Shown here piece after piece: positions 1 through 23,845 of a DNA stretch of 30,349 nt. The stretch covers positions 1-30,349 of the forward strand of contig JANPJI010000734.1 in assembly GCA_031425425.1 (NCBI GenBank), written 5' to 3'. A program made the translations under genes and the position numbers. Source of the DNA: Rubricoccaceae bacterium (GTDB taxonomy: Bacteria > Bacteroidota > Rhodothermia > Rhodothermales > Rubricoccaceae). Each line of letters starts with the position of its first letter. Position 1 is the stretch's first letter. The notes under the pieces were generated by a model. It worked only from the letters and a program-made list of their open reading frames with translations. It did no database searches and was not told the DNA's origin.

Positions 1-2997
1 GCCCGCGCCGAGGCCGCCGCCGAGGCCGCCGAGCGCGCCGCCCTGCTCGACCTGCTCGACCGCCGCGCCGACGCCCACGCGCACGCCGTCGAAGCTGCCC
101 GACACGCCGATGCCTTCCCGGCCCCGATGGCGAACGTCGCCCGGGACACGCTCTCGCGGTACGAAGCCCTCGCCGCCGATGCACGCGCGGCGGCCGACGC
201 CGCCGAGGCGTCCGGCCAGACGGCTGCCGAGGCCGCCGCTGCCCTCCTCGCCCACCCGTGGGCGACGTCCGACGCTCCGTCTCCGACCGAACTTGCCGCC
301 CGCGTCCGGGCGCTCGACGAGGCGGCGCGGGCCGTGACGGACGCCGAGCGCGACCGCGCGAGCGCGCAGGCGCAGGCCGACCACGCCGCCGAAGCGCTCC
401 GCGATGCGGGCGCGCCGGACGGCCTCGCGCTCGCGCCGGACGCCCTCGAACGGGTCGCCGACCTCGCCGCCGAGGCCGGCCGCACCCGCGCCGCTGCCGA
501 TGAGATGGCCGCCCGCGTCCAGGTCCTCAAGGCCCACCACAACCGCATCCAGCCCGTCGACGCCGACGCGCTCCGCCGCGGCGTCGAGGCGCTCCGGACG
601 TGGCTCGCCTACACCACGGACGCCGCGCCGGCTGCGCCGCGCCTCGCGCCGGGTCCGGTGTGGATCGTCGCGGCCGTGCTTGCGGTCGTCGCCCTCGCCG
701 TTGGCGTGCTCGCCAGTCCGTGGGCGCTGCTGTTGCTGCTCGGCAGCGCCGGGCTGGCGTGGGTCGCATACACGCTCGCGCAGCCGCTCCCGGCCCGCGA
801 GAACCCCGCCGAGCGTGCCCGCGAAGCGTACGGCATCCTCCGGCTGGACCTGCCCGCCGAGTGGACGCCCGCGCACGTCGAGCAGACGCTCCAGACGCTC
901 GACCGACAGGCGGCCAGCCAGGACGTCCGCCGCCTGTGGCGCGAGCGGATCGACGAGGTCGAGCGCACCATCGGGGACCTTGCGGACGCCGTGGCGGACG
1001 TCGAGGCGCGCGAGAAAGAACTCTCGGTGGGGCTCGGGCTGCGCGTCCCGCGCGGGGCTGAGGGGCTCCTCGTGCTCACGCACCAGGTCGTCGCCTGGCA
1101 CGCCGCAGATGGTGCCCGAGCCGCGTCCGAGGGCACGCTTGCCGCGGCGCGCACGGCGCGAGACGCCGCCCTCGCTGCTGTCAACGCGCTCCTCGGGGGC
1201 GTCCCGCTCGCGCCGGCCCGCGACGCCGCCGAAGCCGCTGCGGCCGTGACGGCCGTCGCTCAGGGCGTCGCGGCGCGCGACGGGCTCCGCCGCGCCTCCG
1301 CCGTCGCCAACGCGGACGCCGACGGAGCGTCGGCCGCCCACCGCACGGCGGAGGCGGCCCGCGATGCTCTGCTGGCGCGGCTCGGACTTGACAACCCCGA
1401 CGTCGCGGCCGTCGCCCACCTCTGCAGCGCGTTCGACGCCTACCACGACGCCCGGACGGCCGCCGCCGCCGCCGCCGCTCTCGCCGACGTGGCGGACCGC
1501 AGCGCCCGCGCGCACCCTGTCTTCCGCGAGGCGCTGCTCGCCCTCGCGCCGTCCGAGATCGCGCTCCGTCGTGACGAGGCGCGGCTCGTAGCGGCGGGCC
1601 GCGACGCCCACCTCGACGCCGCCGCCCGCACGCGCGAACGCGTGGACCAGGCCCGCGCCTCGGACGCGCTCGCCGCCGCCACGGCCCGCCACGGGGCCGC
1701 CCTCGACGCCCTCGGCACCGACTACGACGCTACGGCCGACGCGCTCGTCGGCGACGCGCTCGCCGGGTTCGTCGAGGACGACACGCGCGATCAGCACCTC
1801 CCGCGCGTCTTCCAGCGCGCCCGCGACCTCCTCGCCGCGATCACTGCGGACCGCTACCGGCTCGACTTCGACGCCGCGACGGGCGCGTTCCGCGCCTTCG
1901 ACACGGCGCAGGACCGCAGCCTCGCCCTCGACGCGCTCTCCGGCGGGACGCGCCTCCAGTTGCTGCTCGCCGTCCGCCTCGCCTTCGCCGAGGTCCAGGA
2001 GGTCGGCTTCCGCCTACCAATCCTTATCGACGAGGCGCTCGCGACGAGCGACGACGAGCGCGCCGGGTCCATCGTGGACGCCGTCCTGGGCGTCTGCCGC
2101 GGCGCGGGCGGTGAGAGCGGACGCCAGGTCGTCGTGTTCACGTCGCAGGCCGAGGAGGCCGCCCGGTGGGTCCGCCACGCCGACGCCCACGCCGGCCTCG
2201 ACTGCCGCGTGGTCGCCCTTCCGGGCGTCCCCGCGATCGCAGACCTCGGTGCCGCCCCGTCCGAGCGGACCACCCGGACGGTCCCGGCCCCGGCCGGACA
2301 CACGTCCGAGACCTACGCGCGGGCGACGAACGCCGCAGCGTGGACCGCCCGCGACCCGCTGGCCGCCCTTCCGGTGGCGCTTCTTCTGGAGCCCGAGGCG
2401 GCCCACGCCTGCCTCCGCGCGGGCGTCGACACGTGGGGGCCGCTCCGTGCGGCGATCCGCCGGGGCGCGGCCGGCGGCGGCACGTCGGTCCCGCTTTCCG
2501 AGCCCGAGACGCGCCGCCTGCTCGCCCGCGTCGGTGCCATCGACGCATGGCAGCAGGCGTGGCTCGTCGGCCGCGGCCGGCCTGTCGGCCGCGACGTGCT
2601 CGCCGCCTCAGGTGCCGTCGGGCCGACGTTCCTCGCCGAGATCGGTGCCCTGTGCGACATCGCCGACGGCGACGCACGGGCCGTCCTCGATGCCCTGCGG
2701 GAGTCGCCGCCGGCCCACTTCCGCCGCGCCCGCGTCGACGAACTGGAGGCGTACGTCGTCGCCCACGGCTACCTCGCGTCCGAGGCCCCGCTTCCCCCGG
2801 CCGACCTCCGCGCCGCCGTCGCCGCGGTGACGTCCCCGGACGCGCTCGACGACGTCCTCGCGACGCTGGCTCGCCTCCGGACGTACGCTGAATCGCTCGC
2901 CGCGGAGCACGCCGCCGAGCATGAGGCGGAGCACGCGGAGCACGTCGCCTCGGGCGACGGCCACGCCGCCCCCGCCGGCCTGTTCGGCGAGGCGTAG
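1..2997 (+). CDS. YhaN/SbcC-like AAA/ABC-type ATPase with long coiled coil; 5' end lies outside the window
   Basis: The frame is open from base 1. The middle is Ala-rich coiled coil with a hydrophobic hairpin (PVWIVAAVLAVVALAVGVLASPWALLLLLG). The C-terminal ABC half has signature LSGGTRLQLLLAVRLA, Walker B LPILIDEAL and D-loop SDDER. Walker A is presumed upstream of the window. Confidence 0.8.
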   Translation, partial: ARAEAAAEAAERAALLDLLDRRADAHAHAVEAARHADAFPAPMANVARDTLSRYEALAADARAAADAAEASGQTAAEAAAALLAHPWATSDAPSPTELAARVRALDEAARAVTDAERDRASAQAQADHAAEALRDAGAPDGLALAPDALERVADLAAEAGRTRAAADEMAARVQVLKAHHNRIQPVDADALRRGVEALRTWLAYTTDAAPAAPRLAPGPVWIVAAVLAVVALAVGVLASPWALLLLLGSAGLAWVAYTLAQPLPARENPAERAREAYGILRLDLPAEWTPAHVEQTLQTLDRQAASQDVRRLWRERIDEVERTIGDLADAVADVEAREKELSVGLGLRVPRGAEGLLVLTHQVVAWHAADGARAASEGTLAAARTARDAALAAVNALLGGVPLAPARDAAEAAAAVTAVAQGVAARDGLRRASAVANADADGASAAHRTAEAARDALLARLGLDNPDVAAVAHLCSAFDAYHDARTAAAAAAALADVADRSARAHPVFREALLALAPSEIALRRDEARLVAAGRDAHLDAAARTRERVDQARASDALAAATARHGAALDALGTDYDATADALVGDALAGFVEDDTRDQHLPRVFQRARDLLAAITADRYRLDFDAATGAFRAFDTAQDRSLALDALSGGTRLQLLLAVRLAFAEVQEVGFRLPILIDEALATSDDERAGSIVDAVLGVCRGAGGESGRQVVVFTSQAEEAARWVRHADAHAGLDCRVVALPGVPAIADLGAAPSERTTRTVPAPAGHTSETYARATNAAAWTARDPLAALPVALLLEPEAAHACLRAGVDTWGPLRAAIRRGAAGGGTSVPLSEPETRRLLARVGAIDAWQQAWLVGRGRPVGRDVLAASGAVGPTFLAEIGALCDIADGDARAVLDALRESPPAHFRRARVDELEAYVVAHGYLASEAPLPPADLRAAVAAVTSPDALDDVLATLARLRTYAESLAAEHAAEHEAEHAEHVASGDGHAAPAGLFGEA

Positions 2998-12931: not shown

Positions 12932-13003
12932 GGGAACCGGGGATCCGCGTCGGGGCCGGTCGGGTGCCGTCGGTATCTTTTGCGTCCCGCCCGACACCCC
13001 GAA

Positions 13004-15604
13004 ATGGCAAAGCCACCGAAGAGCCGTCCCACCCCCGCACGGCCCGCGCCGCTCGCCGGCAACGACGGCTGGAAGCGCCGGAGCCGCGTCCGCGCGACTG
13101 GCCCCGTCCTCCGCGGCGAGGCGTCCGTGTGGGACCGGCTGCCGGACTGGGCGCAGCACGCCGTCTGCATCGGGTTCCTGCTCGTCGTCGCCGTCGGCTT
13201 CTTCTGGCCGACGACGTTCGGCGGCAAGGCGTTCGCCGGCGGCGACACGGTCCAGTGGCGCGCGACGGCCCAGGCGATGCAGGCGTACGAGGCCGAGACC
13301 GGCGACGCGGCGCTGTGGGCACCCAACGTGTTCGGTGGGATGCCCGGCTACCTCGTCTCGTACCCCACGCGCGTGCCCGGCGCGGACACCGTGGTCACGG
13401 CGCTGCGCGGGCTCGGGCTGTGGCCCGTCGCGCACTTCTTCGTGCTGTTGCTCGGGACGTACCTGCTGTCCGTCTTCCTCACGCGGTCCAAGTTGCCGGG
13501 CGTCGTCGCGGCGGTCGGCTTCGGGCTCTCGGCGTACCTCCCGATCATCCTCACCGCCGGCCACAACACCAAGTACGTCGCCCTCGCGTACGCGCCGTGG
13601 CTGCTGCTTGCCTTCGCCGGCGTGATCCGGCGCGAGCCCGGCACGAAGCGGATGAAGAGCATCTTCCTGACGCTCCTCTTCGCCATCGCCGCGGCGACGA
13701 ACCTGCGGGCGGGGCACGTCCAGATCACGTACTACGTCGTGGTGATCGCGGGCGTGTGGTGGATCGCCGAGGGCGTCTCCGCCTTCCGCGGCAAGACGCT
13801 CAGGACGTTCGCGTTCTCGACGGGCCTTCTCGTGGCCGGGGCCGTGCTGGGCCTCGCCCTCGTGGCGCAGCCGTACCTCGCGCAGTGGGAGTTCAAGCCG
13901 TTCACGACGCGCGGCGCGAGCGAGGGCGGCGGCCTCGCGTGGGACTACGCGATGCAGTGGAGCCAGGGCTGGGGCGAGCTGCTCACGCTCGTCATCCCGA
14001 ACGCGTACGGCGGCGGCGGACCGCTCTACTGGGGTCCTAAGGTGTTCACCGCCGGTCCCCACTACCTCGGTCCGGTGATCCTGCTGCTGGCCCTCATCGG
14101 GGCCGTCGGCGTGGCGCGGCGCTCGGTGTTCGCCTTCTGGCTGTCCGCGTTGCTGATGTCGGCGTTCGCGCTCGGCGAGCACTTCGAGCTGCTCAACCGG
14201 CCCGCCTTCGCGGCCCTGCCGCTGTTCAGCACGTTCCGCGTGCCCGAGACGTGGCTCGCCGCCGTCGCGCTGGTCGTGGCGCTTCTGGCGGGGTGGGGCG
14301 CGTACTACCTCCAGCGCCGCGAGGCGACGCCCGAGGCCGAGGCGCGCAAGACGCGCGTCGCCGGCGGGGCCGCCGCCGCGTTCGTGTTGCTCGTCGGTGG
14401 GCTGTGGATCACCGGCGGGGCAGGGCTCTCGTTCGAGAAGCCCGGCGAGGCGGAGCAGGTCGCCCAGGCCGTGGCCGCGCAGGCGGCCGAGGCGGGGCTC
14501 CCGCCCACGGACCCGCAGGTCGCGCAGGCCGCCACCCAGTACCTCGGCCAGATCCGGGCGGACCGCGTCGCCGCATTCTCATCCGACGCCGGCCGGTCGA
14601 TGCTCTTCCTCGCGCTCGCGTGTGCCTGCGTGGCGCTGCTCGTGACGCGCCGCGCGCCGGCGTTCGTCGCCCTCGGGGCGCTCGCGCTCCTCGCCACGGC
14701 CGACCTGTGGGGCGTCGGCCGGCGGTTCGTCTCCGACGACTCGCCGTCGCTCGTGCGCCGCCGCGCCGCCACGGCTGCGCCGCTGAGCGGGGCCGACACG
14801 TTCCTCGCCGAGCGCGCGCGCGCCGCCGGGCCGGGCACCTTCCGCGTGCTCCCCCAGAACCCGCTCTCGACGGCGGGTCCGTCTGCCTACGCCGAGTCCG
14901 TCGGCGGCTACAACGGGGTCCGCCTCGCCGCCTTCGAGGACTACCTCACCGAGACGCTCCCGGACTCGGCGACGGGCTACAACCGCAACGCGCTCCGCCT
15001 GCTGGCCGTCCGCTACGTCGTCGCGCAGGGTGTGGTGCCGGGGCTCGCGCCGGTGTACCAGGACCCGCAGACGGGCCAGGTCGTCTCCGAAGACGCGTCG
15101 GCCGCACCGCGGGCGTACCTCGTCGACCGCGTCGAGGTGGTGCCGGACGCGGCGGCGATGCGCGCGCGCGTCCGGAGCCTGCAGACCGACCTCGAGCGGG
15201 TCGCGTTCGTCTCGGCCGAGGTGCCGGGCGTCTCGGCCGCCGCCCTCTCCGGAGCTGCGCCCGACTCCGCCGGGACGTCCGTCGAACTCGACCGCTACCG
15301 GCCCGACGAGATCGTGTGGCGGGTCCGCTCGGACCGGCCGCGCCTGTTCGTCGCCTCGGAGGTGTACTACCCGGCCGGGTGGACGGCCCGCGTCGGCGAG
15401 GCGGACGCGCCGATCGTGGCGGTGGACGGGCTCGTCCGCGGCGTGCCCGTCCCGCGGGGCGAGAGCCTCGTCACGATGACGTTCCGCCCCGAGACGCACC
15501 GCACGAGCGTCATCGTCTCGTGGATCGCGTTCGTGCTCGCCTACGGCGGCGCGCTCGGGCTCGGCGGGCTGCTCTGGCTCCGCCGCGGCAAGCACCCGGC
15601 GTGA
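13004..15604 (+). CDS. YfhO-family multi-pass membrane protein (GT-C type glycosyltransferase)
   Basis: ALWAPNVFGGMPGYL, GHNTK, HVQITYY, WDYAMQWSQG, YWGPKVFTAGPHYLG, FSTFRVPETW, SVGGYNG and SEVYYPAGW, with many TM helices. Start at ATG 13004. Confidence 0.82.
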   Translation: MAKPPKSRPTPARPAPLAGNDGWKRRSRVRATGPVLRGEASVWDRLPDWAQHAVCIGFLLVVAVGFFWPTTFGGKAFAGGDTVQWRATAQAMQAYEAETGDAALWAPNVFGGMPGYLVSYPTRVPGADTVVTALRGLGLWPVAHFFVLLLGTYLLSVFLTRSKLPGVVAAVGFGLSAYLPIILTAGHNTKYVALAYAPWLLLAFAGVIRREPGTKRMKSIFLTLLFAIAAATNLRAGHVQITYYVVVIAGVWWIAEGVSAFRGKTLRTFAFSTGLLVAGAVLGLALVAQPYLAQWEFKPFTTRGASEGGGLAWDYAMQWSQGWGELLTLVIPNAYGGGGPLYWGPKVFTAGPHYLGPVILLLALIGAVGVARRSVFAFWLSALLMSAFALGEHFELLNRPAFAALPLFSTFRVPETWLAAVALVVALLAGWGAYYLQRREATPEAEARKTRVAGGAAAAFVLLVGGLWITGGAGLSFEKPGEAEQVAQAVAAQAAEAGLPPTDPQVAQAATQYLGQIRADRVAAFSSDAGRSMLFLALACACVALLVTRRAPAFVALGALALLATADLWGVGRRFVSDDSPSLVRRRAATAAPLSGADTFLAERARAAGPGTFRVLPQNPLSTAGPSAYAESVGGYNGVRLAAFEDYLTETLPDSATGYNRNALRLLAVRYVVAQGVVPGLAPVYQDPQTGQVVSEDASAAPRAYLVDRVEVVPDAAAMRARVRSLQTDLERVAFVSAEVPGVSAAALSGAAPDSAGTSVELDRYRPDEIVWRVRSDRPRLFVASEVYYPAGWTARVGEADAPIVAVDGLVRGVPVPRGESLVTMTFRPETHRTSVIVSWIAFVLAYGGALGLGGLLWLRRGKHPA

Positions 15605-16959
15605 GGGAACTGGGAACTGGGAACTGGCACGACGTCTCCCCGAAGGCTAGTCGCCCGACTCGCCTGCTCGTCGTGACGTACTACTTCCCGCCGTCGGGCG
15701 GGGCGGGCGTGCAGCGGCCGCTGAAGTGGGTGCGCTACTTCCGTGAGACCGGCATTGAGCCCGTCGTGCTGACGGTCCGCGCCGGGGCCTACCCCGCGCT
15801 CGACGCGAGCCTCCAAGCCGACGTGCCCGTCGGCACGACGGTCGTGCGGACGCGCGCGCCGGACCCGTTCGGCCTCTACGGCCGCCTCACGGGCCGTTCG
15901 CGCGGCGAGGCCGTCGCGGCCCGCACCGGGACCGTCGGCCAGAGCCGGTCTCTCCCGGAGCGCGCCTCGCGGTGGGCGCGGGCCAACCTGTTCGTGCCCG
16001 ACGCGCGCGTCGGGTGGGTGCCGTTCGCCGTCCGCGCCGCGCACCGGCTCTACCGCGAGACTCCCGTCGACGCCGTGCTCACGACGGGTCCGCCGCACTC
16101 GGCACACCTCGTCGGCCGCGCGCTCGCGCGGCGCCTCGGCCTGCCGTGGATCGCCGACCTCCGCGACCCGTGGACGGACATCCACTACACCGGCGCGCTC
16201 GGGCGGAGCGCGTGGGCGCAGCGCCTCGACGCGCGCCTCGAAGCGTCGGTCCTGCGCGAGGCGTCGGCCCTCATCACCGTCACGGCTCCGCTCCAAGACG
16301 CGTTTGCGCAAAAGGCCGGGCGGCCCGTCGCGCTCGTCCGAAACGGGTTCGACCCGGCGGACTTCCCGGCGGTCGGCCCTGCGCCGGCGCGCGGCCCGTT
16401 CGAGGTGCTCTACACCGGGACGCTCTACGATGTCCCGCACGGCCTTCTGGAGGCGCTCGCGTGGCTCCGCGGAGAGGGCGTGGACGTCCCGCTCCGCATC
16501 GTCGGGGCCGCCCCCGAGGCGCTCGTCGAGGCGGCCGCACGGCGCGGGATCGCCGACCTCGTCCGCTTCGGGCCGCCTGTTCCGCACGACGAGGCTGTCG
16601 CGCTCATGCGCGCTGCGGCGCTGCTGCTGATCACGGTCGAGGCGTGGAGCTACGCCGCAGGCGTCGTGCCGGGCAAGACGTACGAGTACCTCGCCTCCGG
16701 CCGCCCCGCCCTCGGGCTCGGGCCTGCAGACGGCGACGCCGCAGCCGTGCTCCGCGACACGGGCGGCGGCACGTTTCGTGCTCCCGGCGACGTGGACAGC
16801 ATCGCGGCCGTGCTCCGGGAGCACGCTGCGGCGTGGGCGGCGGGCACGCCGCGCGCCGGAGCGCCCGCCGAGGCGCTCGCTCCGTACAGCCGCCGCGTGC
16901 AGACGGCCGCCGTCGCGCGGATCGTCCAGGACGCAGTAGCCGCCGCGCGCGGCGCGTAG
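15601..16959 (+). CDS. Glycosyltransferase family 4 (GT-B)
   Basis: LLVVTYYFPPSGGAGVQR, TTGPPHSAH, WIADLRDPW, RNGFDPAD and PGKTYEYLASGRP. The only in-frame ATG/GTG/TTG before the first conserved strand is GTG 15601, overlapping the yfhO-like stop. Confidence 0.88.
   Translation: MRELGTGNWHDVSPKASRPTRLLVVTYYFPPSGGAGVQRPLKWVRYFRETGIEPVVLTVRAGAYPALDASLQADVPVGTTVVRTRAPDPFGLYGRLTGRSRGEAVAARTGTVGQSRSLPERASRWARANLFVPDARVGWVPFAVRAAHRLYRETPVDAVLTTGPPHSAHLVGRALARRLGLPWIADLRDPWTDIHYTGALGRSAWAQRLDARLEASVLREASALITVTAPLQDAFAQKAGRPVALVRNGFDPADFPAVGPAPARGPFEVLYTGTLYDVPHGLLEALAWLRGEGVDVPLRIVGAAPEALVEAAARRGIADLVRFGPPVPHDEAVALMRAAALLLITVEAWSYAAGVVPGKTYEYLASGRPALGLGPADGDAAAVLRDTGGGTFRAPGDVDSIAAVLREHAAAWAAGTPRAGAPAEALAPYSRRVQTAAVARIVQDAVAAARGA
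15605..15627 (+). repeat. Tandem heptamer (GGGAACT)x3 plus GG
   Basis: Perfect copies at 15605-15611, 15612-15618 and 15619-15625. Confidence 0.9.
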
Positions 16960-16987: not shown

Positions 16988-17521
16988 ATGCCCCAGTTCA
17001 CGCCGCCCAACGCCGCGCACGCGCGCCGCTTCGCGCTCACGCGCCGCTTTCTCGGCGAAGCGCTCGCGCCGCCGGCTCACCTGCTGGACCTCGGCGGCGA
17101 CAACGTCTTCGCCGGGACGCTCCGCGAGGCCGGCTACACCGTCACCAACACCGACGCGGACTTGGACGACACGCCGGAGGCCGCCGCCGTCCAGGCGGAT
17201 GCGGTGACGGCGTTCGAGATCCTGGAGCACCTCGTCAACCCGCTCGGCGTGCTCCGCGCCGCGCAGGCCCCGCGCCTGTTCGCGACTGTCCCGATGCGCC
17301 TCTGGTTTTCGAGCGCCTACCGCAACCCCAGCGACCCGTGGGACCGCCACTACCACGAGTTCGAGGACTGGCAGTTCGACTGGCTCCTCGACAAGGCCGG
17401 CTGGACGGTCGTGCGCCGCGAGCGCTGGACGAGCCCGCCGACGGGTGTCCCGCTCGGCCTCCGGCCGCTGCTGCGGACCGTCACGCCGCGGTGGTACGCC
17501 GTCGAGGCCGCTCGGCGTTAG
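16988..17521 (+). CDS. Class I SAM-dependent methyltransferase-like protein
   Basis: Motif I-like LLDLGG, then DAVTAFEILEHLVNP and WDRHYHEF; it lies inside the glycan locus. Confidence 0.7.
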   Translation: MPQFTPPNAAHARRFALTRRFLGEALAPPAHLLDLGGDNVFAGTLREAGYTVTNTDADLDDTPEAAAVQADAVTAFEILEHLVNPLGVLRAAQAPRLFATVPMRLWFSSAYRNPSDPWDRHYHEFEDWQFDWLLDKAGWTVVRRERWTSPPTGVPLGLRPLLRTVTPRWYAVEAARR

Positions 17522-17524
17522 CCG

Positions 17525-18664
17525 ATGGCGCTCCAGATCCTCCACCTCGCCTCGGCACACGCTGCAACCGACCCGCGCATCGCCGAGAAGGAGTGCCGGA
17601 CGCTCGCCGGGGCGGGCCACGACGTCGCCTTCGTGGTTCCGCACGACCGAGACGAGATGCTGAACGGCGTTCGCATCCTCGCCGTGTCTCGCCCCCGCGA
17701 CGGAAAAGACCGGCTGCTCCACACGACGCGCGCCGTCGTCCGCCGCGCCGTCGCCGCGGCGCGCGGGCCGGAGACCGTCTTCCACGTCCACGAGGCAGAC
17801 CTGCTGCCGTTCGTGCTGCCGCTCGCCGCGCGCGGGCGCCGCGTCGTGTACGACGCCCACGAGGACACGCCGCGGCAGACGGCCCACCAGGCCTGGATCC
17901 CGGGCCTGCTCAAGCGCCCCGCCTCGGCGGTGTATGCCGGCCTCGAAGCGCTCGCCGGGCGATTCTGCGCCGGCGTCGTCGCCGCGACGCCGACGATCGC
18001 GGACCGCTACCCCGAGGCGAAGACCGCGCTCGTCCGCAACTTCCCCGTCCTGACAGACGCGCCTGTGCCGGCGTTCGAGACGCGCGAGGCGCTCGTGGCC
18101 TACGTCGGGGCCGTGACCGCGGCGCGCGGGGCGGCCGAGATGGTCCGCGCGGCGTCCTTTCTCCCCGAGAGCGCGCGCCTCGCCATCGCCGGGACGCCGT
18201 TCCCCGCCACTCTCCCCGAGCGCCTCGCCGGCCTGCCCGGGTCCGACCGGACCGACCTGCTCGGCTCGCTCGCCCGCCCCGACGTGGCGGCCCTCCTGGC
18301 GCGTGCGCGCGTCGGACTCGTCGCCCTCCACGCGACGCCGCAGTACGTGGACGCGTACCCGACCAAGCTCTTCGAGTACATGGCCGCCGGCCTGCCCGTC
18401 GTGGCTACCGACGTGCCGCTGTGGCGGAGCGTCGTCGACGGCGCGGGCTGCGGGCTCCTTGTGGACCCGCTGGACCCGGCCGCCATCGCTGCGGCATGTA
18501 CGCGCCTGCTCACGGACGACGCGCTCGCGGCGCGGATGGGCGAGGCGGGGCGCGTGGCGGCGCTCGACCGGTTCGCGTGGCGCGGGGAAGGGGAGAGGCT
18601 CGTCGCGTTCTACGACGCCCTCGCCGCGGGCCGTCCGCCCGGCCAGCCCCGCCCCGTGCTCTGA
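17525..18664 (+). CDS. Glycosyltransferase family 4 (GT-B)
   Basis: [30 protein letters not shown] and [19 protein letters not shown]. Confidence 0.88.
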
Positions 18665-20166
18665 TGCTCAAGCGCCTCTTCCAGCAGAGCGGCATCTACA
18701 CGCTCGCGAGCGTCGTCGGCAAGGCCAGCGGCTTCGTCGTGACGCTGTATTACGTGGACCCGGCGTACCTCTCGAAGGCCGACTTCGGGACGTTCGACTA
18801 CCTCCTGTCCGTCCTGATGATCGCGCTCCTCGTCGCCGGGGCGGGCCTGCCGCTGGGGATCCTGCGGTTCGCGACGTCGCGTGAGGTCCCCGAGGCGGAG
18901 CGCGCGGCGGTCCCGGCGACGGCCCTGCTCATCGCGTTCGTCGCCTCGGCAGCCGTCGCGTGCGCGGCGTGGATCGGGGCACCGGCCCTCGCCGAGGTTC
19001 TGCTCCGCGACGCCTCGCGGGCCGGGCTCGTCCGCACGCTCGCGCTCTACATCGTCTGCAAGACCGTTGCCGACGTAGCCTACCAGGAGCTGCGCCGCCG
19101 CGAGCGGCCGGGCTTGTACGTCGCCATGACCGCGGCCGAGATGCTGCTCCAGACGGCGGCCGTGGTCGTGTTCCTCGTCGTGTTCCGGCTCGGGCTCGCC
19201 GGGATCCTCTACGGCTACCTCGCCGCAGCGGCGGTCCTGGCGACGGTCTCGACGGGCGTGCTGCTGGCGCGGGTCGAGCGGCGCGTGAGCTGGGCGCTCG
19301 TGCGCCCGATGATCGTGTTCGGGCTGCCGCTCGTCGTGTCCGGCATGGCCGGGCGGTTCCTGTACGCCGGCGACCGGTTCGTCATCCTGCACTTTCTGAC
19401 GCCCGACGACAACGCGGTCTACGCGTGGGCGTCGCGGTTCGGCGGGCTCGTCAACGCGTTCCTGGTGCAGAGCTTCCAGCTGGCGTTCACCGTCCTCGGC
19501 CTCCAGGCGCTCGGCGACGGTGGCGCGCCGGCCCTCCACCGGCGCGCGTTCCGGCACTTCTCCGTCGTCGCCGGCTTCGCCGTGCTCGGGCTGGCCCTGT
19601 TCGTGGACGACGTGAGCCGGGTCGTGACGCCGGACCCCGACTACGCGCGCGTCTCGGGGCTCGTGCTGCTCATCGCCGGCGGATTCGGGTGGTACGGGCT
19701 GTACTTCGTGACCGTCAACGTGCTCTTCGCCGCGGGGCGGACGCGCGCGGTCGCCGTGGCCGTCGGCGCGGCGGCGGCGCTCAACGCCGGGCTCAACTGG
19801 GTGCTCGTGCCGCGCTACGGCATCGCCGGGTCCGCCTTTTCGACGCTCGTCGCCTACGTCGCGCTGTCGGTCTGGACGGGCGTCTCGGCGGAGCGCATCA
19901 GCCGGGCGAACTACCCGTGGCGCGTGCCCGTGCTGCTGTCCGCCCTCGTCGGCGGGCTGTGGGCGGTGGGCGTCCCGACGGCCGCGTGGCCACTCGCCGA
20001 GCGCCTCGCGGCGCGGGCGGCCCTGCTGGCGCTGTACGTGCCCGCCCTGCTGGCCCTCGGCGTGTATGGCCGGGCGGACGTCGACGCGGGGCGGGGGGCC
20101 GTCCGGGCGTTCCAGGCGCGCCGCGCGGGCGTCAACGCGCCTCCCGAGGACGCCGAGGCGCGTTGA
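18664..20166 (+). CDS. Wzx-like oligosaccharide flippase (MOP superfamily)
   Basis: ATG 18664 overlaps the upstream TGA. About 12-14 TM segments; [37 protein letters not shown] and [19 protein letters not shown]. Confidence 0.85.
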
Positions 20167-20190: not shown

Positions 20191-20274
20191 GCCCGCCCGG
20201 CCCCCGCCGACGTGCGGACCCCGCACGGCGCGACCCGCGCGCGCGGCGGCCTCCACCTCTCTAGAGCAGTTCCC

Positions 20275-20559
20275 ATGGCAACAGGAGATTCCGGTTCCGC
20301 CCTCGGCATGGTCGAGACGAAGGGCCTCATCGGCGCGATCGAGGCGGCGGACGCGATGGTCAAGGCGGCCCGCGTGACGCTCATCGGCAAGGAGCAGATC
20401 GGCGGCGGCTACGTCACCGTGATGGTCCGCGGCGACGTCGGCGCGGTCAAGGCGTCCACGGACGCGGGCGCGGCGGCGGCCGAGCGCGTCGGCGAACTCG
20501 TCTCGGTGCACGTCATCCCGCGGCCGCACGCCGAAGTCGAGCACATCCTCCCGGGCTGA
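20275..20559 (+). CDS. Bacterial microcompartment hexameric shell protein (BMC-H, EutM/PduA/CcmK type)
   Basis: [43 protein letters not shown] and [10 protein letters not shown]; 94 aa from ATG 20275. Confidence 0.95.
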
Positions 20560-20562
20560 CCC

Positions 20563-21156
20563 ATGGCCGACCGCCTGCCCGGCCTCGGCGGGGCCCCCAT
20601 CCCGCCCGGCTCCGCGCTCGGCCTCGTCGAGACGTTCGGGCTCGTTGCCGCCATCGAGGCGGCGGACGCAATGCTGAAGGCGGCCGACGTCCGGCTCGTC
20701 CGCAAGCACCGCGTCGACCCGGGCATGATCTCGCACATCGTCGTCGGCGAGACGGCGGCCGTGCAGGCGGCCGTCGATGCGGGCGTAGCCGCGGCGCAGC
20801 GCGTGGGCAAGGTCTTCGGCTCGCTCGTGATCCCGCGCCCGGCCGACGACGTGTGGCAGAAGATGCTGGGCGTCCCGCTCGCGTCCGACACCGCTCCCGA
20901 CGCCTCGGGGGCGGACAGCCCGGCTCTGCTGCGGCTCGCCTCGTCGCCGGCTCCCCGCGCCGCGGCACCCCGCGCCGCGGCACCCCGCGCCGTGGACGCG
21001 TCGGCCCCGCCGGACCGCGACTACGACGCGATGACGGTCCGCGACCTCCGGGCGCTGGCCCGCGAGCGCGCGGACATCGCCCTCCAGGGCCGGGCCGTCG
21101 CCGCGGCCTCGAAAGACGACCTCGTCGCCGAGCTGCGCGCCGCGGACGCCCGATGA
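20563..21156 (+). CDS. BMC-H shell protein with low-complexity linker and C-terminal helical domain (PduK/EutK-like architecture)
   Basis: [35 protein letters not shown] and LVIPRP, followed by a (PRAAA)n linker and [16 protein letters not shown]...[10 protein letters not shown]. Confidence 0.9.
20953..20992 (+). repeat. In-frame 15-bp tandem repeat (about 2.7 copies) encoding PRAAA
   Basis: CCCCGCGCCGCGGCA at 20953 and 20968, with a partial copy at 20983. Confidence 0.85.
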
Positions 21157-22139
21157 GCCCGTTCGCCACGGGCAGCGCCGCTTCCGGCGGTGCGGCCCCC
21201 GGGGCGCGGTCGCGGCCGAACCCGACCGCGATGGCGCTCTCGCTCGTCGTCGCCGTGGGCCTGTGGTTCTCGTTCAGCATGCGCGAGACGTACACGGTCG
21301 CCGTGCCGGTGACGCTCCGCGTGGCCGGCGTGCCGGAGGGGCAGGCCCTGAGCGCCCGCCCGCCCGCGACGGCGAGCGCGACGTTCCGCGGCGAGGGCTG
21401 GAAGCTGCTGCTCCTCTCCCGGTCGGCCCCCGTCGTCCCACTCTACGCCGACGCGGCGTCCGTCGACCTCGAACGCGCCGTCGCGGCGTCGGGCCTCCCG
21501 CCGGGCGTGGACGTCCAGAGCGTCCGCCCCCGGACGGCCCGGCTCGCGCTCGACCGCCAGGTCCGCCGCCGCGTCCCGATCCGGCTCGTCAGCGACATCC
21601 GGCCCGTGCCGTCGTTCGGGCTGCTCCGCCCGCCGCGCCTGCTGCCGGACTCGGTGACGGTGACGGGTGCCGCCCGCCTCGTCGCCGCGCTCGACGCGTG
21701 GCCGACCGAGCGCCTCGACGCCGCAGACGTCCGCGATCCGCTGACGATGACCGTCGCGCTCCGGGACACGCTGGCGGGCCTCGTCACAGTGTCCGCCCGC
21801 ACCACGACGGTCCAGATCCCCATCGCCGAGTTCACCGAGGGCGTCCGGACGCTCCGCGTCCGCGTCGTCAACGTCCCCCGCGGGATCGCCGGAGTTCGGA
21901 CCGAGCCTGCGCGCGTCCGCGCGACGTACCGGGTCCCGCTGACCGCGGACGACCTCTACGGGCAGGCCCAGACGGCAGCGGGCTTCGTCGCCGTGGTCGA
22001 CTACCGCGACATCGCCCGCGACACCACGTCGGGCACGGTCGCGGTCGCTGCGCGCGTCCCCGCCGGCCTCGACGTCCGCGACGTGGCGCTCGCGCCCTCG
22101 CGCGTCGAGTACTTCCTGGTCCGCCGCGCGGCCCCCTGA
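21153..22139 (+). CDS. YbbR/CdaR-like domain protein with N-terminal membrane anchor
   Basis: ATG 21153 overlaps the BMC stop (ATGA). A TM segment ([14 protein letters not shown]) is followed by beta-rich repeats: [41 protein letters not shown] and EFTEG. Confidence 0.75.
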
Positions 22140-22164: not shown

Positions 22165-23097
22165 ATGGGATTTCTGTTTCTCGCCGTGGCGTGCAGCCTC
22201 GGCATCGCGACCGTCTTCAAGCTCGCCGAGCGGCGGGACTTGGACCGGACGGCGCTGCTGGCCGTCAACTACGCCGCGGCGGCCGTGCTCGCGCTCGTCC
22301 TCCAGGGGGCCGACGTGGCCGCTCTCTCCGGCGTCGCACCGGGGGCGGTCGCGCTCGGGGTGCTGCAGGGCGTGCTGTTCATCGGCGGCTTCTGGCTGTT
22401 CTCGCTCGCGATCCGCAGGGCCGGGATCGGGCTCGCCGCGGGTGCGATGCGCCTCTCGGTCGTCGTCCCGGTCGTCGCGTCGTGGGCGATCTGGGCCGAG
22501 GTGCCGACGGTCGCGCAGGGCCTCGGGCTGGCCCTCGCCGGCGTCGCGTTCGTGCTCGTCGCCCGGCCGTCCGGTGCGCACGCGCCAGGCGGGACCGTCG
22601 CCGGTGAGATGCCCGCCGCGACGGCCGCGGCCGACGGCCTCCCGGGAAGCCCCACGCCGCGGCGCGCGGGCAACCTCGTGCTCCTGCTCGGGCTCCTCTT
22701 CGTCTCCGGCGGGCTCGTCGACGTGGTGATGAAGGCGTTCCAGAAGGGCTACGCCGCCACCGTCCCCACTCCGACGTTCCTGCTGGTCGTCTTCGCGGTC
22801 GCGTTTACGGTGGGCACGGCCGCCGTGGTCGCAACGGGCGTCCGGACCGGCCGCTGGCCCGGCGTGGCCGTCGTCGGCTGGGGCGTCGGGCTGGGGATCA
22901 TCAACTACGGCTCGGCCGAGTTCTTTCTGCGCGCGGTCGGCGCGCTTCCGGCCCCCGTCGCGTTCCCGTTGAACAGCGTCTCGATCGTTCTCGGCGCGGC
23001 CCTGCTCGGGCGCCTCGTGTGGGGCGAGACGCTCTCGCGGGCCAACCTGGCAGGGCTCGCGCTCGCCGCCGTCGCCGTCGCCCTGCTTGCCGGCTAA
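22165..23097 (+). CDS. EamA/DMT family transporter
   Basis: About ten TM helices in two repeats; LLAVNYA, RAGIGLA, INYGSAEFFLRAV, FPLNSVSIVLGA and WGETLSRAN. Confidence 0.88.
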   Translation: MGFLFLAVACSLGIATVFKLAERRDLDRTALLAVNYAAAAVLALVLQGADVAALSGVAPGAVALGVLQGVLFIGGFWLFSLAIRRAGIGLAAGAMRLSVVVPVVASWAIWAEVPTVAQGLGLALAGVAFVLVARPSGAHAPGGTVAGEMPAATAAADGLPGSPTPRRAGNLVLLLGLLFVSGGLVDVVMKAFQKGYAATVPTPTFLLVVFAVAFTVGTAAVVATGVRTGRWPGVAVVGWGVGLGIINYGSAEFFLRAVGALPAPVAFPLNSVSIVLGAALLGRLVWGETLSRANLAGLALAAVAVALLAG

Positions 23098-23119
23098 CCT
23101 CCGCCTGTCCCTCGGACCC

Positions 23120-23845
23120 GTGCCCGACTCGTCTCCCGCCCCTCCGCCCGCGGCACCCGCCCGCCGCTCGAATCCGCTCGGCGCGGTCGTCGGCTTTGTG
23201 CTGGCGGTCGCGCTCGTGCTGGCCGCCGTCGGCTCGTTCGTGTGGTCGCTGGTGCCGCGGATCACCGAAGAGACGGTTCAAACGGCCGTCTGGACGGCTA
23301 TCCAGCGCGAGGTGCCGGACGAGTTCCTCGTCGTCGGCACGCTCGACATGACGACGGTGACGCGTACCGACCGCGTGACGCGCCTCCTTCCCGGCCTCCT
23401 GGATCTGGAGACGGGCCGGACCACGACCCGGATGCGCGTTCCGGGCCGGGTGAGCTACGGGTTCAACCTTCGGGCGCTCCAGCCGCGGGACATCCGCTAC
23501 CTGCCCGAAGGAGTGGTCGTGGTGACGCTCCCGCCCCTGGCGGTCTCCTCGGTGGAGCCGGTCCTCGAAGACATTCAGGTCGAGATCGACCGCGACCGGT
23601 GGCAGTCTCTGATGCCCGGCTTCGACGAGGGGACGTTCCGGTCCGCCCTGGCGCCGGTCCGCCCCGCTCTCCGCGCGAGGGCCGAGGCGTACGTCGCCAG
23701 CAACGCGCAGCCGAAGCGCAACGCCGCTCGGGCCGTCGAGCGGATGATTGCGACGCCGCTCGCGGCGGCCGGCGTACGCGACGCTCGGTTCCGCTTCGTC
23801 GTCGCCCCCGGCGACACGCTGGAGGGCAGCCGCGGAGACCGGTAG
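23120..23845 (+). CDS. DUF4230-like membrane-anchored protein
   Basis: Single N-terminal TM, then RVPGRVSYGFNL and VVVTLPPLAVSS, which fit this family. Start placed at GTG 23120. Confidence 0.65.
   Translation: MPDSSPAPPPAAPARRSNPLGAVVGFVLAVALVLAAVGSFVWSLVPRITEETVQTAVWTAIQREVPDEFLVVGTLDMTTVTRTDRVTRLLPGLLDLETGRTTTRMRVPGRVSYGFNLRALQPRDIRYLPEGVVVVTLPPLAVSSVEPVLEDIQVEIDRDRWQSLMPGFDEGTFRSALAPVRPALRARAEAYVASNAQPKRNAARAVERMIATPLAAAGVRDARFRFVVAPGDTLEGSRGDR

Follow-up and report, generated by a model that had tools for sequence, protein, structure and literature searches.

Background

The closest described system is FRAG1, a shell-protein-only type that was catalogued by Sutter 2021 in Ignavibacteria, Kryptonia, Bacteroidetes, Chlorobi and Rhodothermaeota (PMC8217296, Suppl. 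Data 2). [quoted passage not shown] FRAG1 genomes harbor no recognisable encapsulation peptides or cargo enzymes (PMC8217296, Suppl. Data 2). The catalogue entry gives neither the fold nor the function of the C-terminal domain, and our literature searches returned no FRAG1 follow-up and no paper linking SAP domains to microcompartment shells.

Other BMC-H proteins with additions at the C-terminus offer further points of comparison. EutK carries a C-terminal folded domain that is suspected of nucleotide binding and whose role is unknown (PMC5821096). PduK and the GRM6 'H_pumpkin' are likewise specialised non-basal BMC-H paralogs with a C-terminal extension, and their tails contain a four-cysteine motif. 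Here we describe the second of two adjacent BMC-H genes, whose C-terminal extension ends in a small folded domain, and compare it with these systems.

Results and discussion

Organisation of the locus and identity of the shell

The window, that is the whole stretch of 30,349 nucleotides that was analysed, has a G+C content of about 75%, and third-position G+C picks out one long gene array on the + strand (Table 1). The ORF of the second BMC-H is the true frame, with a GC3 of 0.94. Its sole in-frame start is the ATG at 20563, 3 nt past the stop of the first BMC-H gene, and its own stop overlaps the start of a YbbR-like gene (ATGA). The first, 'basal' BMC-H has a canonical GGG pore loop (IGGGYV), the KAA edge motif and the PRPH motif. 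It scores 132.5 bits against the NCBIfam EutM model, slightly short of the cut-off of 133, and clusters in a small tree in a tight clade with EutM and GRM BMC-H proteins. To judge from the sequence, its start is most likely the ATG at 20275 rather than the GTG at 20212, because the resulting length of 94 aa matches that of the Rubrivirga marina ortholog (95 aa). The GTG start (20212-20274) would give the protein 21 residues that are absent from orthologs; with the ATG start, 108 nt from the flippase stop remain as promoter space.

Table 1. Position of the shell genes, their neighbours and the parts of the second BMC-H
Feature	Location	Positions	Strand	Remarks
YfhO-like membrane protein	window	12980-15604	+	
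GT4 glycosyltransferase	window	15601-16959	+	
Methyltransferase	window	16988-17521	+	
GT1 glycosyltransferase	window	17525-18664	+	
Wzx-type flippase	window	18664-20166	+	
First BMC-H ('basal' hexamer)	window	20275-20559	+	94 aa from ATG 20275; PF00936 101.3 bits
Second BMC-H with C-terminal extension	window	20563-21156	+	197 aa + stop
BMC domain of the second BMC-H, residues 18-93	window	20614-20841	+	PF00936 87.8 bits against a cut-off of 24.5; model pLDDT 88-98
Pore loop VDPGMI, residues 51-56	window	20713-20730	+	replaces canonical G-S/G-G
Disordered Pro/Ala/Arg linker, about residues 104-151	window	20872-21015	+	model pLDDT about 48-55
Folded SAP/HeH/Rho_N-like domain (by model), residues 152-197	window	21016-21153	+	model pLDDT 93-98
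YbbR-like bitopic membrane protein	window	21153-22139	+	PF07949 23.0 bits, cut-off 22.3; N-terminal membrane helix
EamA transporter	window	22165-23097	+	
DUF4230 protein	window	23087-23845	+	
BMC-P pair	contig C627 (L007)	295-851	-	adjoins WecA-type GT4 transferase and carbamoyltransferase
Single BMC-P	contig C75 (L008)	2438-2734	-	adjoins dihydrolipoyl dehydrogenase (Lpd) and AAA ATPase
Distant homolog P0128	L010	8479-8943	+	BMC-H with canonical SGG pore and the same SAP-like tail
YfhO, GT4, Wzx and YbbR-like array of BMC-free relative G003	L064	8345-10926		

The genome assembly (3.5 Mb in 783 contigs, 83% complete) contains exactly two BMC-domain genes, which are adjacent and both in the window. 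Three BMC-P genes (PF03319 above cut-off) lie outside it, two of them adjacent on contig C627 and one on C75. The seemingly pentamer-less shell operon of the window is one fragment of a dispersed shell gene set, and a pentamer-less 'minimal shell' was rejected on account of the three BMC-P genes elsewhere in the genome. No BMC core enzyme was found beside the shell genes on the three contigs of this 83% complete genome; their neighbours code for glycosyltransferases, a flippase, a carbamoyltransferase, Lpd, an AAA ATPase and a class I FBP aldolase. A DeoC/LacD-family gene near the single BMC-P was considered as a DeoC of the SPU type and rejected, being a class I fructose-bisphosphate aldolase.

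The same shell set and the same scattering of genes are thus found here as in FRAG1, and nothing essential differs. It is near-certain, as regards both identity and architecture, that the second BMC-H is the specialised extension-bearing hexamer ('H-ext') of a FRAG1-type fragmented shell. Its close orthologs carry the names Rubricoccaceae or Rubrivirga. As a type the protein has been catalogued before, and this gene is a further member; what is added here to its annotation is the predicted SAP/HeH/Rho_N-like fold of the tail, the EutK-like pore loop combined with a tail unrelated to that of EutK, the spread of linker lengths and the YbbR-like gene as a conserved neighbour.

The BMC domain and its pore loop

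Several features of the BMC domain that an earlier note had read from the DNA sequence were recovered in the comparison with orthologs. About 15 extra N-terminal residues precede strand 1; they are variable among orthologs and poorly modelled. The edge-lysine motif (AMLKAA) is retained and its lysine, K39, is invariant. The pore loop is altered, reading VDPGMI as against IGGGYV in the upstream BMC-H. P91 and P93 are conserved, and the H of the (P/A)RPH motif is replaced by A, S or D (here PRPADD). In an alignment to solved BMC-H proteins, D52-P53-G54 stand where the pore-lining G-S/G-G lies, and P53 is kept in at least 90% of 34 orthologs.

The D-P-G loop is not unique to the second BMC-H and may be called EutK-like by sequence, E. 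coli EutK having LDPGRL at the same position. Of 21 tail-bearing homologs examined, not one has a canonical GSG/GGG pore motif. The loop takes several forms across the phylum (DPG, DAGL, DPAM, TAAL and others), which points to a relaxed or different pore function and not to one new selectivity. The pore of the second BMC-H is probably narrow or closed, as would be expected because its loop is devoid of the small Gly/Ser residues of conducting hexamers.

The likeness to EutK includes the general plan, a BMC-H with a folded C-terminal domain, and within the BMC domain an RP-DD-W motif in addition to the D-P-G loop. This domain is 55% identical to that of E. coli EutK and 52% identical to the upstream BMC-H. 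Among NCBIfam models, that of EutK scores best on the whole protein, with 83.8 bits, far under the cut-off of 218, and it aligns over positions 4-91 of 166 only. In a small tree of 85 alignment columns, in which EutK has a long branch, EutK groups with the tail-bearing proteins of Rhodothermales with a support of 95/88, a grouping that is suggestive only. Tail-bearing BMC-H evolve much faster than basal BMC-H in a small tree. The two proteins differ in their tails, that of EutK being a helix-turn-helix to which the tail of the second BMC-H is unrelated: the hhalign probability between the tail profile and residues 105-166 of E. coli EutK was 3.4%, and no entry titled EutK was present in the top 50 structural neighbours of the tail. 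They differ also in their surroundings, as no eut genes were found in the window or in 22 homologous loci examined. A tail of the PduK type, with its four cysteines, is ruled out, there being 0 cysteines in the 197 residues of the second BMC-H.

A folded C-terminal domain on a variable linker

The linker rich in Pro, Ala and Arg and the end of about 45 aa that the earlier note had delimited are clearly separated in an AlphaFold2 model built with 34 orthologs (51-91% identity), where the linker has a pLDDT of about 50 and the tail one of 93-98. Modelled by itself, the tail has a pLDDT of 88.5. Its predicted helices span residues 159-168, followed by a loop, 177-181 and 184-196. Ten tail positions are invariant in the 34 orthologs (V159, L162, R163, R167, G176, R177, A182, K184, L187 and L191), whereas the linker is unalignable among them, so that the tail is not a product of chance. 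The tail is ordered, conserved and cysteine-free; disorder, lack of conservation or a PduK-type tail had been named beforehand as findings that would speak against a domain.

Across the phylum the linker ranges from 9 to 345 aa. High-GC genomes have linkers rich in Pro and Ala, low-GC genomes strongly acidic ones. Low-GC linkers (L030, L033, L034, L036, L042, L069, L070) start with a short patch of Lys and Arg, after which comes a small aromatic motif, for example FSLF, TLF, FF or LFS. Patch and motif together could be a conserved short linear motif, which is not evident in the Pro/Ala linker of the window.

The resemblance to Rho-N/HeH folds proposed in the earlier note finds its counterpart in the structural neighbours of the tail, which are Rho N-terminal, SAP and LEM/HeH domains, and in Pfam matches that stay sub-threshold. 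An exhaustive VIA-align comparison over 48,161 PDB chains returned the Rho N-terminal domain (Z 5.8, rmsd 2.0 A over 44 residues), the SAP domains of SLX4 (Z 5.5), hnRNPUL1 (Z 4.8) and FAN1 (Z 4.7), the LEM domain of emerin (Z 4.5), and the SAP domains of Hcc-1, PIAS1 and MKL1 (Z 4.3-4.4) and of Ku70 and SF3B2 (Z 3.9); a Z below 8, and these matches are at 4-6, can reflect a common arrangement of small helical domains. Neighbours in the ESM Atlas, with a TM of 0.70-0.83, belong to clusters annotated as Rho_N or SAP (Rho itself, bL21 with Rho_N, and others). Foldseek matches were all weak: E-values were 1 or worse against both the PDB and Swiss-Prot models, with Rho, MRTF-A, Ku and AIM34 among the matches, and those from Swiss-Prot models were MRTF-A, bacterial Ku, AIM34 and Ish1.

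Sequence profiles point the same way at lower scores. On the second BMC-H, Pfam SAP (PF02037) gives 17.5 bits against a gathering score of 23.9 and Rho_N (PF07498) 14.7 bits against 24.9, neither of which is reached; weak matches recur among the orthologs, to SAP in 25 of 34 and to Rho_N in 14 of 34. Pfam and NCBIfam searches with the isolated tail gave nothing above threshold, only sub-threshold SAP and Rho_N. No similarity to E. coli Rho residues 1-50 was found by hhalign, the profile search of PDB sequences with the tail yielded one spurious match, to a charged helix of MFAP1, and the ESM Atlas feature search with the tail no usable match.

With the SAP, Rho_N and HeH-LEM families the modelled tail shares the layout of helix, extended loop and helix, the signature hydrophobics, an 'ELR' motif, the loop glycine and the lysine before the last helix. 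It has an additional short helix between the glycine and the lysine, which places it nearer Rho_N than canonical SAP, and the descriptions of the three families include no fusion to a BMC domain. We therefore describe the tail as SAP/HeH/Rho_N-like in its predicted fold and not as a demonstrated family member, because all SAP and Rho_N Pfam matches are sub-threshold.

Among the 34 orthologs R160 is nearly invariant and forms a basic stripe with R163, R167, R177 and K184. The tail domain has a pI of 8-11.6 in 16 of the 21 relatives examined, and the Rubricoccaceae tail is net acidic or neutral, with a median pI of 5.2.

Distribution of the tail and of BMC-P genes

We surveyed 301 genomes of the phylum, representing 144 genera. 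The tail profile matches 54 of the genomes, in 43 genera, and always as a single copy. BMC-P genes are present in 57 genomes, nearly always in three copies arranged as a pair and a single gene, and 52 genomes have both; of the five with BMC-P and no tail match, two carry a diverged tail on direct reading. The tail thus co-occurs almost perfectly with BMC-P triplets. Moreover, the tail gene always lies directly 3' of a highly conserved basal BMC-H, as seen in 20 loci of 30-70% G+C. FRAG1 shells, which have no known cargo or function, were seen in about a fifth of the genomes surveyed.

In searches of 1.8 and 5.8 billion proteins with the tail only, all complete matches carry a BMC domain. Several short matches resemble cut gene ends, and one match of 98 aa without BMC sequence (P0127) may be a fragment or a stand-alone copy of the tail. 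A distant homolog, P0128, combines the same tail with a canonical pore (Table 1). Its locus is a complete glycyl-radical-enzyme microcompartment, with the GRE, its activase, BMC-P, EutQ and two further BMC-H as well as AldDh, PTAC, a TRAP transporter and an Fe-ADH. A region-restricted search with the tail of P0128 returned P0128 alone. A cluster of BMC-plus-tail proteins in the ESM Atlas consists, as far as its members have a known phylum, mostly of Bacillota. From this cluster and the P0128 locus it follows that the tail domain is not confined to FRAG1.

The surroundings of the BMC-P genes were read in 11 relatives. The phosphopentomutase gene deoB (above the NCBIfam cut-off) lies directly upstream of the BMC-P pair in five of them (L054, L058-L061), a sigma-70 factor follows the pair in seven, and dprA directly follows the single BMC-P in six (L044-L047, L051, L052). 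Many neighbours of shell genes are thus nucleotide- or DNA-related, if RuvX, Tmk and Upp around the BMC-H pair are counted, and may reflect a nucleoside/deoxyribose role like that of the SPU types or plain housekeeping synteny.

Possible role of the C-terminal domain

Shell incorporation, outward display and the ligand of the tail are what we infer here. BMC-H proteins have their termini at the concave face (PMC5534457), which is turned towards the cytosol in solved shells (PMC6787980); by analogy with these shells, display of the tail on the outside is probable. The reading that we favour, and to which we would give an even chance, is that the tail of this FRAG1 H-ext is an outward tether to an anionic partner, nucleic acid being the leading candidate. 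The second BMC-H would tile into facets that are made mainly of the co-encoded basal BMC-H and closed by the three BMC-P encoded elsewhere, such tiling being expected because the edge lysine and the PRP motif are kept. Its flexible linker would display up to six SAP/HeH/Rho_N-like domains per hexamer outside the organelle. These domains would tether the compartment to an anionic partner, in the first place the nucleic acid of the nucleoid, and the tether might serve in positioning or partitioning the compartment, or bring it close to its substrate.

An anionic ligand is suggested by the invariance of R163, R167, R177 and K184 and by the basic pI of the tail in most relatives examined, and a tether that reaches out by the variable linker, often long and acidic. 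A parallel is offered by EutK, where a different, putative nucleotide-binding domain is carried by a BMC-H with the same D-P-G loop. The net acidic or neutral tail of Rubricoccaceae argues against nucleic acid. The genes beside the second BMC-H do not consistently include one for a positioning ATPase or for a DNA-related partner. We consider nucleic acid a candidate ligand with somewhat less than, or at best, an even prospect, and a protein partner its main rival.

In the more specific and more tentative form of this tether, FRAG1 compartments would carry their own attachment to the nucleoid, each hexamer offering as many as six SAP-like domains that bind DNA, on linkers that reach about 345 residues at most; we regard it as possible and a good deal less assured than the general reading. 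If true, it would represent a built-in alternative to ParA/McdAB-type systems for positioning and inheritance, and the HTH of EutK would be an independent solution to the same problem. Instead of hitching to the nucleoid, the organelle might be held at DNA as a source of substrate, which fits the presence of deoB beside the BMC-P pair in relatives.

SAP, LEM and HeH domains also mediate protein-protein contacts. The tail could accordingly be an outward adaptor that recruits a cytosolic protein, such as a feeding enzyme, a regulator or a positioning factor, instead of nucleic acid. The same architecture and the same arguments for outward display hold for an adaptor, the fold is used in this way by the SAP domain of SLX4 with MUS81, by the LEM domain of emerin with BAF and by PIAS1, described as p53-binding, and the tail of Rubricoccaceae is net acidic. 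However, no conserved candidate partner adjoins the gene, its sole conserved neighbour, the YbbR-like protein, being periplasmic, and four basic residues are found among the invariant tail positions. We regard an adaptor as a possible but clearly second choice.

It is rather unlikely that the second BMC-H is not a shell tile at all but works in solution or at the periphery, for instance as a regulator that binds nucleic acid or as an assembly factor for the shell genes. EutK was reportedly found to be monomeric in solution by Tanaka et al. in 2010, and the BMC domain resembles that of EutK in its identity, its D-P-G loop and its place in the tree; moreover, the PRPH interface motif has changed to PRPA or PRPD, and tail-bearing proteins evolve faster than their basal partners. 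Nevertheless, the edge lysine never varies and the PRP motif hardly does. The gene comes in every case with a basal BMC-H, from which 3 nt separate it here, and it co-occurs with triplets of BMC-P; the placement of EutK relies on a long branch and 85 columns.

A tail that faces the lumen and scaffolds cargo, as a built-in counterpart of an encapsulation peptide receptor, is improbable. An unusual way of loading is conceivable in FRAG1, given that neither encapsulation peptides nor cargo enzymes are recognisable (PMC8217296), but the termini lie on the concave face that is outward in solved shells, and the space of a small lumen would be taken up by a linker that can reach 345 acidic residues.

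Within the shell set, the extension-bearing hexamer is the sole component with an extra domain and therefore the most direct experimental handle on the contacts of the organelle with the cell. A SAP/Rho_N-like domain, its possible use as an outward tether and a EutK-like BMC domain with an unrelated tail turn a vague catalogue remark into hypotheses that can be tested: the domain may bind DNA or RNA, it may serve in positioning, and the hexamer may be a closed-pore "display" tile. In shell engineering, the protein would stand as a natural case of a hexamer to which very long C-terminal fusions are tolerable.

Neighbouring genes and the YbbR-like protein

Roughly 40 of the sampled genomes have both the tail gene and the YbbR-like gene, and in 32 of them the latter lies directly 3' of the former. 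The other surroundings differ between groups. In Rhodothermales, YfhO, glycosyltransferases and Wzx are found upstream of the BMC-H pair, and the polysaccharide gene context is limited to this order. In the low-GC group the pair is preceded by Der, a CoA-disulfide-reductase-like protein, Upp, RelA/SpoT and RuvX, and followed by Tmk, CtpA and TauE.

The earlier note had counted the co-encoded membrane protein among the possible ligands of the tail, a suggestion that found no support. The YbbR-like protein of the low-GC group begins with 'MKKK' and continues directly into the membrane helix, so that its cytoplasmic part amounts to about 4 residues. The gene is present in 179 of the 301 genomes, many of them without BMC genes and including 49 of 49 genomes of one BMC-free family. 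As a housekeeping gene product with almost nothing exposed to the cytoplasm, it is unlikely to be the partner of the tail. Two families have the tail gene and no YbbR-like gene, and in six genomes the two genes are unlinked. In a BMC-free relative of the same order (G003), the array of YfhO, GT4, Wzx and YbbR-like genes is kept (Table 1) with the YbbR-like gene directly after Wzx, the two BMC-H being absent exactly at that junction, which is consistent with the clean loss or gain of the BMC-H pair as a cassette. Other BMC-free relatives retain the YbbR-EamA-DUF4230 array. The YbbR-like, EamA, DUF4230 and polysaccharide genes were all rejected as partners, given that the array exists without BMC genes and that the low-GC flanks differ entirely. 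We thus consider the BMC-H pair a cassette upstream of a housekeeping gene, and the adjacency as ancient and not as a physical partnership.

Anchoring of the compartment, or of BMC-H sheets, to the inner membrane through the YbbR-like protein or anionic lipids would link the shell to the surrounding envelope-polysaccharide genes, and it could draw on the recurrent adjacency amid otherwise differing neighbours, the ATGA overlap of the two genes here and the conserved basic stripe of the tail, but it is the least credible role for the tail in view of the short cytoplasmic part of the YbbR-like protein in low-GC relatives, the wide occurrence of its gene without BMC genes, its position directly after Wzx in the BMC-free relative, its absence or separate location in some tail-bearing genomes and the restriction of the polysaccharide context to Rhodothermales.

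Finally, about a dozen YbbR-like matches in other families contain one in-frame stop (TAA, TAG or TGA), for example in G161, G289, G061, G233, G016 and G113; these stops probably arise from the profile running past the end of the gene.
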